Positions 42,457 through 56,192 of a DNA stretch of 64,000 nt are shown here, one piece after another. The notes under the pieces are model-generated. The model did not search any database and was not told where the DNA came from. It saw only the letters and a program-made list of their open reading frames with translations. The DNA comes from Candidatus Scatovivens sp. GTDB taxonomy: Bacteria > Bacillota > Clostridia > TANB77 > CAG-508. The stretch is taken from contig JAZRKN010000014.1 of assembly GCA_045646345.1 (NCBI GenBank), forward strand, positions 97,882 through 161,881, written 5' to 3'. Numbering within the stretch: the first letter of the stretch is position 1; every line of letters begins with the position of its first letter. Position numbers and translations under genes: made by a program.

Positions 42457-43677
42457 ATGAAAAAAATTATATCAAGTGTACTAATAGTTGTACTATTGTT
42501 TAATTTCATATGTGGTAACAATTGTGTATTCGCGTCAGGAGTAGAAAAAGACGAACCGGAATCTAAACATCCGCTAGAAGCAGAAGCTCCTATTAGCGAA
42601 AACGTTGGTTCAGATTTGATTGAATCTGGTGCAGTGTCACAAACACAAGGTTCAGCAACCAAAAAAACGTTGAGTATTGGAAGTGCTGGTATCTCTGCGA
42701 TGGGGCAAGTTATGGGGTTGTTAGCTCGTTTGGTAAACGTGTTTATTGTACAAATAGATATGGTTATGGGGCTATTAACGTTTACTGAAGAGAATGGACA
42801 ATCTGATTTCTGGCTTACGATAGATAGAATAGTATTTAATAGAATTGCGTTGTTTAATATAAACTATTTTGATACAGAAGATACATATGATGTTGGAACT
42901 GCGGAAATAACAGCAAACACTTCTAATATTGCTATAAAAGAAGGTATAACAAGTATTTATTATATATGTAGATTATTAGCTATATCTATATTATTATTAG
43001 TACTTATATATATTGGTATAAGAATGGCTTTATCAACTGTTGCTTCAGATCAAGCAAAATACAGAAAAATGTTGGTAAGTTGGGTTGAAAGTTTAATATA
43101 TGTTTTTGTTATGGCATATATAATGGTAGCGATAATCGAATTTAGTGAATTATTAACAGGAATTTTTTATGATATGAGAGTTCAATTGGTAAATGCTCAA
43201 ACTGGCGTTGAACATAAACTTTTTGAAGAAACGATTCGTGCTAAGACATTAAGTTTGGTATTTGAAAATGATGGATTACAATTAACAATTTGGTCTGTAA
43301 TTTATTGGATACTATTATATACAGAAATAAAATTCTTCTGGTTATATATAAAAAGGGTATTCATGGTTGGATTATTAATAATTATTTCTCCACTTATTAC
43401 TATTACTTATTCAATAGATAAGGTTGGAGATGGAAAAGCTCAAGTATTTTCTTCATGGTTAAAAGAATTTATTGTAAACGTATTAATACAACCTTTACAT
43501 GCATTATTATATTTGATATTCGTACTTACAGCGAATTCAATTGCTATATATTCTCCAATAGTTGCAGTAGTATTACTTATGGTAATGGGATCTGCAGAGA
43601 GAATGGTTAAAGTAGTATTTGACATGAAAGGATTAACATCGTTAAACGGTATAAATAAATTTATGAAGAAAGGATAA
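42457..43677 (+). CDS. VirB6/TrbL-like polytopic membrane protein A (core only)
   Basis: Signal-like N-terminus and several TMs. Shares FN.IA.., GIRMALST and SPLI..TYSIDK.GDGKAQ...WLKEF motifs with three downstream paralogs. Immediately follows virB4. Confidence 0.65.
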   Translation: MKKIISSVLIVVLLFNFICGNNCVFASGVEKDEPESKHPLEAEAPISENVGSDLIESGAVSQTQGSATKKTLSIGSAGISAMGQVMGLLARLVNVFIVQIDMVMGLLTFTEENGQSDFWLTIDRIVFNRIALFNINYFDTEDTYDVGTAEITANTSNIAIKEGITSIYYICRLLAISILLLVLIYIGIRMALSTVASDQAKYRKMLVSWVESLIYVFVMAYIMVAIIEFSELLTGIFYDMRVQLVNAQTGVEHKLFEETIRAKTLSLVFENDGLQLTIWSVIYWILLYTEIKFFWLYIKRVFMVGLLIIISPLITITYSIDKVGDGKAQVFSSWLKEFIVNVLIQPLHALLYLIFVLTANSIAIYSPIVAVVLLMVMGSAERMVKVVFDMKGLTSLNGINKFMKKG

Positions 43678-43680
43678 TAT

Positions 43681-53514: not shown

Positions 53515-53546
53515 AAGTCAAAGCAAAATAAAAAGGAGAAAAATTA

Positions 53547-56192
53547 GTGAAAAGAATTATAAGTAAAATACTAATAATTTTAATACTATTTGTAATGTTG
53601 TTTGAGTTTACTTGCTCAAGCCCTATTAGTTATGCTGTTGACATTAGAACTGATCCTGAATCTTGGGTTAACAGAATTACAAGTTTGATGGGTGGTATTA
53701 TTTCTATTAAATTGTGGCTATTTAGATTGCAAGCTACAGGAATAATTGTTACCACTCTCGACTTGGCAACCAATACTTTGGCTGAAAGTTGTGGAATTAG
53801 TAGTGATCCGTTTTTTGATGGAACTAAAGCTAAACCAATGACTCCTATAGATATTTTTTATAATAAGTATGCAATTTTGGATATAAATTTCTTTGAAATT
53901 GAGGATAAAAATTGGATTGAGGCTGCTTTTACTGACGACATAATTGGTAATCTAAGAAAAGGTGTTGCAACTTGGTATTATACTTTTAGAAATATTTCAG
54001 CAATAATATTATTGTGTATATTGATATATGTGGGTATTAGAATGGCATTAGCTACAGTTGCAGATGAAAAAGCAAAATATCAAAAAATGCTTTATGATTG
54101 GCTTTGTAGTTTTATATTAATATTTGTATTACAATATATTATAATTTTTACAATAGAAGCTAATAACGGAATAGTGCATTTTTTACGAGAAGCGCTAATG
54201 GTAAGAACAGGAATATTACAATTTACAAGTATGGATGCAATATTAGGATTAATGGCGTTGCAAGCAACAACTGGTATGGGAATGGGAAGTTTTATTGCGA
54301 TAGCTGCTTTATGTATGATTGTTTTCCAAACAATAGCATTTTTCTTAGCATATTTAAATCGTATGCTTAAAGTTGCGTTTTTAATTTTAATCTCTCCATT
54401 GATTTCAGTAACTTATTCAATTGATAAAATTGGAGATGGAAAAGCTCAAGCATTAAATTCATGGTTAAAGGAATTTGTTTATACAATATTAATACAACCT
54501 TTCCATATTGTACTTTATATGGCATTTGCTAATACAGCAATGGCATTATTGACAACAACGAATCCATGGCTTGGATTTATTGACAATATTATTTCTGGTG
54601 GATATAGTGAAATTGTAAACGCAGTTTTAGTTATATTATGTTTGAAATTTGTTAATGATGGTGAGAAAATTATAAGAAAAATCTTTAATTTCCAAGATGA
54701 TTCAAGTACAACATCAATGGCTGCAGGAGCTGCTGTAGGATTGGCTGCATTGAATACAATGAAAAAAGGAGCACAAATAGGAAGCAAAGCTGCAGGTGTT
54801 GTCAATAAATTTGGAGCTATGCCAGCAAGATTATCAAAAGCCTTAGCTGCAAGTGAAAAATTAAAAGATGCTAAAGCTAAATTTGATAATACTTCTGTTG
54901 GAAAATATTTAAAATCAGATCACTTCAAAAAAGTGAAACAAAGCAAAATTTTAACAGGTGGAGCTGCGGCTATTGGAAAGGGTGCTAAGTTTTTAGGTGG
55001 AATTGGAAAAGGAGCATATAACAGAATAAATAAGGCTATTACAGGTGTTAGAAAGCTAAAAAACAATAGTAAATTTTATGCAAAACATAAAGATAAATTG
55101 AAGAAATTAAAAGAGGCCAATAAAAGATATTTACCAAAAACAATGGCATTAATGGGGGCTGCGATGTCTTATGCTACAGGAACATCTGGCGCTATGCAAG
55201 CAATTGGTATGGGAAATGCGTTTATGCAAGGAACTGAAGGTTATTTTTCATCATCTGGTGGTTTTTTAGCAGCAGAGGCTGGTGAACAATTAATGGATCA
55301 ATTAAAAGATGATGATGAAGAATATCAAGAAAATGCAAGACAAATAGCGGAAAATGAAAAGGCTCTTGATGATAACAGTGCGGCTCTAAAACAGGCTGAT
55401 GGAAGAATCAATAGTATAGCTAAGGCTACTTTAAATCCACCAGAATCTATAGCAGAATTTGATGCTCAATATAGAGCATATCAACAAAGTTTAAAAGATG
55501 GTGATACTAAAGGTGCTCAAGAGTTAGAAAAAGAATTAAAGGGAAAATCTGGAGCATTATTTGATGCTTATGAGGATAGAGAAAAATTGAGAGAAGAACG
55601 TAAAAAATTAAAACAAAACAAAAAAGACTTGGAAGATACAAGAATTGCAATTGAGCAAAGGTTAGCAGAAACGGATGTAGATACTCTAAAAGCAATGCTT
55701 GATAAATTTGATAATAAAGGACAAAAAGCTCAAATAGATAAAGCGAAAAACGAAGTTTTAAAAATGATTCAACAAGCGATGATTGCTAAAAAAATTGCAG
55801 AAAATCAAGGTGAGAATTCTAATGATTCAAATGATAATATAACATTAACGGATGAAGAACAAGCAGATGCAAAAGCAATGCAACAAAGAATGTTAATGAA
55901 TTTGGATAGAAGTATATTAAAGACTGGTGCTCATTACGATACAAGAGAAGCTGTTCAATCGATGTTTGGTCAAGAAAATGATTGTGGTGCGGCTTTATTA
56001 GAAGCATTAGAAAATTATAAAACATGCAAACGTGGTGAACAATATTTAGAAAATAAATCTAGATATTTAGAATTTGGTGGGGAAGAAGAAACATTCCAAC
56101 AAAAAACTATTAAAAAAGGAACTGGAAGAGTGTACGGTATGGATAATTTCTTACCAGAAAATTCTGAACATTCAAGTGAAACTAGTGGTTAA
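53547..56192 (+). CDS. VirB6/TrbL-like membrane protein D (881 aa) with coiled-coil tail
   Basis: Shared core motifs and a basic then acidic tail. Confidence 0.65.
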   Translation: MKRIISKILIILILFVMLFEFTCSSPISYAVDIRTDPESWVNRITSLMGGIISIKLWLFRLQATGIIVTTLDLATNTLAESCGISSDPFFDGTKAKPMTPIDIFYNKYAILDINFFEIEDKNWIEAAFTDDIIGNLRKGVATWYYTFRNISAIILLCILIYVGIRMALATVADEKAKYQKMLYDWLCSFILIFVLQYIIIFTIEANNGIVHFLREALMVRTGILQFTSMDAILGLMALQATTGMGMGSFIAIAALCMIVFQTIAFFLAYLNRMLKVAFLILISPLISVTYSIDKIGDGKAQALNSWLKEFVYTILIQPFHIVLYMAFANTAMALLTTTNPWLGFIDNIISGGYSEIVNAVLVILCLKFVNDGEKIIRKIFNFQDDSSTTSMAAGAAVGLAALNTMKKGAQIGSKAAGVVNKFGAMPARLSKALAASEKLKDAKAKFDNTSVGKYLKSDHFKKVKQSKILTGGAAAIGKGAKFLGGIGKGAYNRINKAITGVRKLKNNSKFYAKHKDKLKKLKEANKRYLPKTMALMGAAMSYATGTSGAMQAIGMGNAFMQGTEGYFSSSGGFLAAEAGEQLMDQLKDDDEEYQENARQIAENEKALDDNSAALKQADGRINSIAKATLNPPESIAEFDAQYRAYQQSLKDGDTKGAQELEKELKGKSGALFDAYEDREKLREERKKLKQNKKDLEDTRIAIEQRLAETDVDTLKAMLDKFDNKGQKAQIDKAKNEVLKMIQQAMIAKKIAENQGENSNDSNDNITLTDEEQADAKAMQQRMLMNLDRSILKTGAHYDTREAVQSMFGQENDCGAALLEALENYKTCKRGEQYLENKSRYLEFGGEEETFQQKTIKKGTGRVYGMDNFLPENSEHSSETSG

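Follow-up and report, generated by a model that had tools for sequence, protein, structure and literature searches.

Four predicted VirB6-type platform proteins of a likely plasmid-acquired, chromosomal type IV secretion machine in Candidatus Scatovivens

The present analysis concerns a 64,000-nucleotide window of the genome of Candidatus Scatovivens sp. (family CAG-508, order TANB77, according to the accessible text of PMC13106387; assembly GCA_045646345.1, contig JAZRKN010000014.1, positions 97,882 to 161,881 of the forward strand) and, within it, four proteins here called VirB6-like paralogs a to d (Table 1). These are predicted to be subunits of the VirB6-type platform in a type IV secretion system (T4SS) of the conjugation type that was likely acquired from a large plasmid, is kept on the chromosome and, in the reading tentatively favored here, may serve in attaching to and breaching neighboring bacterial cells. 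The homology of the four cores, the operon that encodes them, the retention of the machine across the order, its synteny with a plasmid and the homology of the first membrane hairpin to pilins are directly supported by the data. It is the order-wide domestication of the machine, rather than the four tails, that constitutes the main interest of the locus.

Cores, pilin-like hairpins and tails of the four proteins

The lengths and coordinates of the four open reading frames (ORFs) in the original prediction were correct, and the common membrane core that it ascribed to the 406-, 1416-, 945- and 881-aa proteins was borne out by pairwise blastp, in which the cores aligned over 254-348 residues at 27-44% identity (E 3e-34 to 3e-86); the shared core measures 254-294 aa. 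The four genes are not adjacent, two genes for single-pass proteins (387 and 515 aa) being placed between those of paralogs a and b. An AlphaFold model of the core, made for paralog a only (built from 138 sequences, pLDDT 85), was matched best by VIA, among 48,161 chains, to TrwI/VirB6 (7O3V; Z 10.3, rmsd 4.7, 231 of 261 residues aligned, chain 2-272, 10% identity), then to DotA (9NGY; Z 9.2, rmsd 5.9, 250 aligned, 4% identity) and to a designed helical repeat (Z 8.0), and Foldseek likewise placed TrwI/VirB6 at ranks 1 and 2. Further, the genes encode polytopic membrane proteins beside virB3/virB4 and a pilin gene, as is characteristic of VirB6. Several results weigh against the assignment: the top-ranked Foldseek matches were not significant (E 0.32); VIA scores under a Z of about 13 can, by the tool's own caution, be generic for helical bundles; a Pfam scan of the four paralogs found no family at E ≤ 0.05, hence no VirB6/TrbL match, paralog a reaching only sub-threshold membrane families of mycoplasma integrative and conjugative elements (ICEs; E 0.0013 and 0.0024); and a search of PDB sequences with the 138-row core profile had as its best candidate ion-channel helices (E 0.045), which were rejected. 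The label VirB6-like thus stands by fold and by context (pilins, VirB4) and falls by sequence family, and because the fold matches combine with the locus context, a VirB6 role of the modeled core is very likely, sequence family membership excepted. Paralogs b, c and d, though not paralog a, which has no extension, correspond to extended VirB6 proteins, defined by five or more hydrophobic helices and a large hydrophilic domain; the role of such domains is given as unknown in the accessible text of a 2025 review (PMC12857230).

The first membrane hairpin of the VirB6-like cores is homologous to the pilins of the same locus. A core profile free of pilins, compared with 3119 ORFs of the genome, matched at E ≤ 10 the four paralogs and the seven pilins alone, the latter at E 1e-8 to 5e-5. 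Of 49 long relatives, 13 matched the pilin family PF18895 below its cut-off. By VIA, residues 154-228 of paralog a align with the R388 pilin over 69 of 69 residues (Z 6.7, rmsd 2.3). In R388, the first two helices of TrwI provide both the membrane anchor and the site of pilin recruitment (accessible text of PMC11294453), from which it would follow that the hairpin is a built-in pilin for docking. It may thus anchor each subunit and serve as a built-in first pilin, with the seven variant pilins docking onto the hairpins of the VirB6-like subunits, and the homology suggests how the platform may nucleate a pilus.

The tails, absent from the first paralog and present in the other three as predicted, are rich in Lys, Arg, Glu and Ala with Gly/Ala patches, also as described. 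The claim that they are unrelated holds for the tail of b but not for those of c and d, which are homologous: profiles made from ortholog tails (22, 8 and 7 sequences) aligned tails c and d over 102 columns (97% probability, E 5.8e-11), in a segment centered on a Gly/Ala-rich hydrophobic hairpin that is conserved in c (about 553-595) and common to d, and detected no relation of tail b to either (14% and 0.1% probability). The hairpin glycines are the best-conserved tail positions in an 89-row alignment. Paralog b has, in addition, an eight-cysteine insertion at 174-243, preceding the core, and a short 11-residue repeat near 1167 in its tail. The predicted coiled-coil-like character applies to the long terminal helix of tail c (about 813-933), the remainder of the AlphaFold model consisting of short helices (all-helical, pLDDT 76, pTM 0.44, 120-residue terminal helix). 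With this model, Foldseek found no specific fold (best E 0.34) and VIA found generic coiled coils spanning the last helix alone (best Z 8.0); a pore-forming or translocator fold was not among the matches, which excludes nothing, because the Gly-rich hairpin was modeled at pLDDT <50. A comparison of tail divergence, suggested along with the prediction, found that the tails evolve about five times faster than the cores: relative to the nearest relative, dN was 0.014 for VirB4, 0.08-0.11 for the cores and 0.29-0.56 for the tails (dS 0.4-1.2), with dN/dS of about 0.03, about 0.1 and 0.33-0.58, respectively. Positive selection on the tails is not shown by these values, as dN/dS is <1 and dS is near saturation.

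The evidence on which side of the membrane the tails lie is nearly evenly balanced. An M23 or NlpC/P60 domain is fused to the N-terminus of VirB6 in 3 of 49 relatives scanned, and two free-standing NlpC/P60 modules end in the N-terminal motif of the core; leaders and fused wall hydrolases point to a VirB6-like N-terminus outside, and if only the first hairpin spans the membrane, as in R388, the tail would start outside as well. Among known proteins, the tails of Anaplasma VirB6-3 and -4 are surface-exposed and the C-terminus of Agrobacterium VirB6 is cytoplasmic (accessible text of PMC7648143). An outside position is disfavored by tail composition, which has a cytoplasmic look (Trp 2 and Cys 0.7 per 1000, vs. 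12 and 8.6 in the N-terminal regions), and by the tails of the 49 relatives, which were without a wall-binding or adhesin domain save for one collagen repeat. The fast-evolving tails would likely give each ring position its own partner, either through target-cell contact outside or through substrate sorting inside. As a separate observation, four relatives' loci (L107, L108, L109, and L134) encode free-standing exported proteins of 336-356 aa, two with weak NlpC/P60 matches; several have the N-terminal VirB6-core motif at their end, and a relative of the 515-aa protein comes next in L107-L109. These free-standing modules suggest that the N-terminal module of VirB6 is exchangeable.

Retention across the order and a plasmid relative

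Of 201 genomes of the order, 196 contain VirB4 (E ≤ 1e-20), at 65-81% identity among the matches listed. A VirB4 tree from a quick search (31 rows) recovers the families labeled f1, f2, f4 and f5 as single supported groups, leaving f3 unresolved. In a class-wide draw, with one genome left unscored, the core profile matched 11 of 11 other members of the order and, weakly, 8 of 288 other Clostridia (best E 1e-19); the VirB6-like family comprises 3318 clusters at E ≤ 1e-30. Copies were counted in 15 of 18 genus relatives and in 22 loci of other genera or families (three additional stretches being flanks), on stretches of ≤ 20 kb, which does not exclude copies elsewhere in those genomes. Within the genus, nine loci have three copies, five have four (one split by a frame change) and one has five; other genera of f1 have 1, 2, 3 and 5. 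Five copies are present in four f5 loci, the fifth being cut by the stretch edge, a single copy in 7 of 7 loci of f2 and f4, and in f3 one copy in three loci, two in one and a two-gene split in two. In some f3 loci (L090, L116, and L127) VirB6 is split at the same place, into profile positions 12-200 and 203-277. Relatives with a single copy, which were to count against the original prediction, thus exist in f2, f4 (7/7) and most of f3 but not in the genus (3-5 copies, 15/15), and the single copy of f2 and f4 argues that the machine does not need several copies, which instead are an elaboration of particular lineages.

A tree of the cores (FastTree, 100 rows) resolves three old classes in f1, namely a (tail-less), b and c/d, with c and d having arisen by duplication within the genus, and a separate f5 clade in which the first gene is again nearly tail-less. 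VirB6 has therefore expanded independently in two families, f1 and f5, and the VirB6-like family offers a natural series, from one to five copies with two independent expansions, for the study of extended domains.

The best plasmid match of VirB4 is on Clostridium beijerinckii p1 (NZ_CP107023.1; 41% identity), and the nearest plasmid matches are clostridial. Plasmid p1 carries, in this order, one pilin, a PrgI-like protein, the two halves of VirB4, a single VirB6 homolog of 896 aa, a C39/3D hydrolase and three single-pass proteins. All of these have homologs in the present system, in matching order; this is also the layout of the single-copy family f4. The 896-aa protein was found by profile only (core profile E 2.5e-20), a tblastn of core c against plasmids having given no match at E 0.01. 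A homolog of coupling protein 1 (E 4e-76) and an S1-domain/relaxase-fold gene pair lie nearby on p1, which MOB-suite calls non-mobilizable. The simplest reading of these sequences is that a plasmid module was likely captured before the order diversified. Against this, the quick VirB4 tree gives no reliable position for the long branch of the plasmid, so the direction from plasmid to chromosome is inferred only. Other small-genome Clostridia (0.9-1.0 Mb, family f43) have chromosomal pilin-like pairs or a VirB6-like/VirB4 pair amid housekeeping genes (L188:9830-10875, L189:8896-14108), perhaps a separate domestication.

Operon, neighborhood and components elsewhere in the genome

Table 1. Predicted features of the locus, in window positions.
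Feature	Position	Strand	Remarks
VirB2-like pilin array, seven genes	35561..38813	+	124-145 aa; PF18895 T4SS_pilin
Pilin genes 1-4	35561-35944, 36140-36514, 36537-36917, 36898-37335	+	PF18895
Pilin genes 5-7	37345-37719, 37737-38141, 38427-38813	+	PF18895
Near-consensus sigma-70-type promoter, 11/12	38347..38375	+	Pattern match, before pilin 7
Putative VirB3/PrgI, 111-aa two-helix membrane protein	38825..39160	+	Position, hydropathy
Split VirB4 (TrsD-like), N-terminal half, 422 aa	39161..40429	+	NF045975 positions 54-226, E 4e-5
VirB4 ATPase half, 663 aa	40449..42440	+	NF045971 E 6.7e-61, below family cut-off
VirB6-like paralog a	42457-43677	+	406 aa, tail-less; helices 155-249 = pilin-homologous hairpin
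Paralogous pair of single-pass membrane proteins, 387 and 515 aa	43681..46412	+	blastp E 2e-26 between them
VirB6-like paralog b	46426-50676	+	1416 aa; 905-aa tail
VirB6-like paralog c	50677-53514	+	945 aa; 575-aa helical tail
VirB6-like paralog d	53547-56192	+	881 aa; 489-aa tail
Two related single-pass proteins, 170 and 323 aa	56214..57713	+	Putatively VirB8-like
Glucosaminidase-G5-SH3 wall hydrolase	58151..59473	+	After 437-nt gap

The pilins match PF18895 at E 3.7e-9 to 2.3e-5, six of the seven above the curated cut-off. The predicted promoter before pilin 7 is the likely start of a 12-gene operon reaching 57713, the gaps between genes from pilin 7 to that point being 0-32 nt. Identical promoter hexamers lie at 35500-35528 (before pilin 1) and 36079-36107 (before pilin 2), and the total of promoter-like sites is not above that of shuffled sequence. 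The 111-aa protein had no Pfam match and has a positional homolog on the C. beijerinckii plasmid (E 1e-6), as does the N-terminal half of VirB4 (E 2e-48). All 15 genus loci, together with L132 and L134, matched the profile of the 387- and 515-aa proteins, which was confined to multi-paralog f1 loci and absent from f2-f5 loci and from the plasmid; an Atlas search with the 515-aa protein returned unnamed clusters only, and the pair belongs to no known family. Profiles of the 170- and 323-aa proteins match each other (100% probability, E 4e-40), that of the 323-aa protein matches a plasmid protein at the equivalent place (E 1.6e-7), and position and topology suggest that both are VirB8-like. The link of the wall hydrolase to the secretion machine is uncertain; only some genus loci have a hydrolase at this place. 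Downstream of paralog d lie the 170- and 323-aa proteins, the glucosaminidase, tRNA-Arg, tadA and dnaX; two further single-pass proteins (59490-60320 and 60990-61715) are paralogs of no known family that flank tRNA-Arg(CCT) and tadA, and a third relative is on contig C6. Upstream, a small island adjoining tRNA-Met (24587-33132) holds genes for type I restriction-modification together with those for a SocA/Panacea antitoxin and its 141-aa partner. The locus contig has no tyrosine integrase, the seven tyrosine recombinases of the genome (1.79 Mb, 96.7% complete) all lying elsewhere, and no recombinase was found among 53 scanned ORFs of the window, so that carriage on a mobile element is not indicated.

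The genes of the machine are chromosomal and spread over three contigs. Two VirD4-type coupling proteins lie amid housekeeping genes, the first of 789 aa (L091:8731-11100) and the second CD1115-like (L092:8171-10232), with retention of the first in 99 of 101 order genomes and of the second in 60 of 61; in view of their presence, the suggestion that the tails recruit substrates in place of a linked coupling protein is not supported. Two genes from coupling protein 1 is a relaxase-fold protein (Replic_Relax, PF13814, E 1e-6), preceded by an S1-domain gene and kept in 97 of 101 genomes. Its match spans profile positions 1-107 only, and in alignments it is without the Asp and second acidic residue expected of the PD-(D/E)XK nuclease site of a MOBC relaxase. 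The Replic_Relax/MOBC family is described as related to PD-(D/E)XK in the accessible text of PMC12857230. Loss of the active site on domestication was considered and dropped, because the plasmid homolog of the relaxase-fold protein also lacks these residues. As to wall hydrolases, relatives' loci encode a CHAP, M23, NlpC/P60 or lysozyme protein of 745-1850 aa, and a homolog of 1836 aa, itself without a Pfam match, lies here on contig C15. Of the parts of a conjugative monoderm (MPF-FATA-like) system, VirB4, VirB3, VirB6, hydrolase, pilin and coupling protein are thereby present (VirB3 and VirB8 being putative labels).

Contig C15 also bears a Tad-like pilus cluster (L094:1138-15301) with a T2SSE ATPase, a ParA-like protein and several proteins of 144-283 aa, arranged as in Kim et al. 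(2024). Identity of the present locus with the published TANB77 pilin (PMC11680825) was weighed and discarded, since that pilin belongs to a Tad cluster and the main text of the paper contains neither “VirB” nor “conjug”. In L186, a Clostridia contig from outside the order, a related ATPase and a CpaB gene adjoin the same T4SS and a DnaN gene, so that both pili may derive from one ancestral element. Contig C9 encodes a 1685-aa alpha-2-macroglobulin family protein (L095:5934-10991).

A recurrent +1 frame change at an in-frame CGG was observed in several of these genes (L092:8660-8690; L091 about 13150; relatives' loci L017-L115). The genes of coupling protein 2 and of the S1-domain protein are each split at CGGA where glycine is expected, and if CGGA is read as Gly, the result is an S1 protein of 267 aa whose alignment with the plasmid homolog continues through the junction. 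In eight T4SS genes of 120 relatives' loci, every one of the 23 frame changes found was +1 and had an in-frame CGG where the frames meet (21 CGGA, 2 CGGT), several being one site common to kin. The frequency of CGG in ORF bodies is 0.14 per 1000 codons, and a long +1 frame was opened by 11 of 40 CGG near ORF ends vs. 1 of 40 for +2. A tRNA-Arg(CCG) was not among the 33 tRNAs found, a set also without Ala and Ile. These sequences possibly reflect order-wide programmed frameshifting or four-base reading, which is not described in the accessible text of PMC8629427.

Possible purpose and comparison with known systems

VirB6 forms a pentameric ring. The present cores may form such a five-membered ring, probably mixed from classes a, b and c/d; the wall could be opened by hydrolases, namely the giant VirB1-like protein and, in some relatives, the enzymes fused to the VirB6 N-terminus; and VirB4 with the two unlinked coupling proteins would power assembly and export. 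A hetero-oligomeric channel, as originally predicted, is plausible in view of the VirB6 pentamer and of three paralog classes that are old and co-retained. By analogy with Patescibacteria, the purpose tentatively placed first is host-dependent (contact-dependent) feeding or effector delivery, ranked over the donation of chromosomal DNA and then over adhesion alone. Genomes of the order are 0.9-2.1 Mb; a full-length strong PurD match was found in 1 of 51, other PurD matches, weak or partial, being read as related ATP-grasp enzymes, and FabF in 23 of 51. A number of points stand against this purpose and its mechanism. The single-copy families indicate that a mixed ring is not required; the genome studied here keeps FabF, FabZ and PyrF and is therefore less stripped than Patescibacteria; purine auxotrophy is common in free-living gut bacteria; substrate, target cell and expression remain predicted only; and DNA transfer would account at least equally well for the retention of both coupling proteins and of the relaxase-fold protein.

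Such transfer constitutes the next, less likely scenario, in which the same machine donates chromosomal DNA to kin (Hfr-like or mycoplasma-like) and pilin and tail variation sets mating specificity or exclusion. The coupling proteins and the Replic_Relax protein are kept almost everywhere in the order, virB4 has the relaxase-fold gene within about 5-13 kb in f2 and f3 genomes, the ComEC competence channel was not found in the 96.7%-complete genome, and cores and pilins weakly match families of mycoplasma ICEs, for which ICE-driven chromosomal transfer has been reviewed (PMC12857230, accessible text). However, the relaxase-fold protein and its plasmid homolog lack the acidic residues of the nuclease, no active relaxase was identified, the PF03432 relaxase was not found, with other relaxase families and oriT not searched, no oriT is known, and mating among kin needs neither pilin arrays nor hydrolase fusions.

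It is rather improbable that the system is mainly an adhesive pilus in which each paralog assembles a separate homo-pentameric platform, paired with a different pilin, and the tails act as scaffolds under loose constraint. The seven pilins with separate promoter-like sites, the variation in paralog number (1-5, through independent expansions) and a tail dN/dS of 0.33-0.58, which fits relaxed selection, are consistent with such a pilus, yet a pilus alone needs no coupling proteins, both of which are retained, and the first paralog is tail-less in both expansions, f1 and f5, pointing to roles that are fixed and complementary. It is very improbable that the locus is a mobile element, newly inserted or in decay, or that the proteins belong to an unrelated transporter family: the closest sequenced relatives outside the order do lie on plasmids or in mobile-looking regions, but retention is near-universal, the VirB4 tree is family-wise, frames are intact, VirB4 and the cores are strongly constrained, the neighbors (tadA, dnaX) are housekeeping genes, and the top fold matches of the core are of VirB6 type (TrwI and DotA).

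In a bolder extension of contact-dependent feeding, which we consider doubtful, every member of the order would live as a contact-dependent epibiont or parasite on other gut bacteria, the Patescibacteria lifestyle having been invented a second time from a captured plasmid; a mixed VirB6 ring with built-in pilins, wall-cutting enzymes at one end and a tail whose conserved Gly-rich hairpin enters the host membrane would form the conduit for feeding or injection. The order is common in human and animal guts, has been reported to have no isolate (10.1101/2022.02.09.479829, accessible text) and has been linked to cancer immunotherapy response through a different (Tad) pilus (PMC11680825, accessible text). 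The machine in about 97% of genomes, together with missing purine and often fatty-acid synthesis, offers a testable reason for failed culture, in that a partner cell may be needed.

No description of the present system in TANB77 was found in the accessible literature, although the supplements of PMC11680825 could list such genes. Already known are extended and multiplied VirB6 proteins, in Rickettsiales, and VirB2 pilins, now reported for the majority of conjugative plasmids of Gram-positive bacteria; the notion that such pilins are unusual in a one-membrane bacterium was abandoned, candidates having been reported on 95% of 174 representative Gram-positive plasmids (10.64898/2025.12.18.695078, accessible text). 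Among known systems, the transfer regions of large Clostridium and Bacillus plasmids such as p1 share the pilin, the PrgI-like protein, the split VirB4, the extended VirB6, the wall hydrolase, three single-pass proteins, the coupling protein and the S1/relaxase-fold pair. However, p1 has one pilin and one VirB6 where the present genome has seven and four, and is without the two extra single-pass genes, the second coupling protein and the scatter of chromosomal genes over three contigs. TrwI/VirB6 of R388 and DotA of the Legionella Dot/Icm system likewise have two N-proximal membrane helices followed by a helical bundle, but here there are four paralogs, the first hairpin is sequence-homologous to the pilins of the locus itself, and outer-membrane subunit families were not seen in the locus; VirB9, VirB10 and VirB11 were not among the 25 locus proteins scanned, the genome not having been searched for them.

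The T4SS of Patescibacteria is similarly chromosomal and lineage-wide, with TrsD plus VirB4, divergent VirB2 pilin arrays, an unlinked coupling protein, no typical relaxase and a small host genome (PMC12102498; PMC12857230, accessible texts), and is essential for growth on the host (PMC12102498). It differs in belonging to another phylum and, as far as the accessible text of PMC12102498 describes it, in having no multiple extended VirB6 paralogs, of which there are four here, next to two coupling proteins that are conserved; dependence on a host for growth has been demonstrated in Saccharibacteria and is proposed here. In the rvh system of Rickettsiales (four or five paralogs; Anaplasma virB6-1 to -4), tandem extended VirB6 genes also stand behind virB3-virB4 and the C-terminal extensions are strain-variable (accessible text of PMC7648143). 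Those are two-membrane intracellular bacteria with a VirB-type system and tails of surface-exposed repeats (PMC7648143), whereas the tails described here are helical and non-repetitive, and the multiplication of VirB6 in the two lineages would represent parallel, independent expansions.

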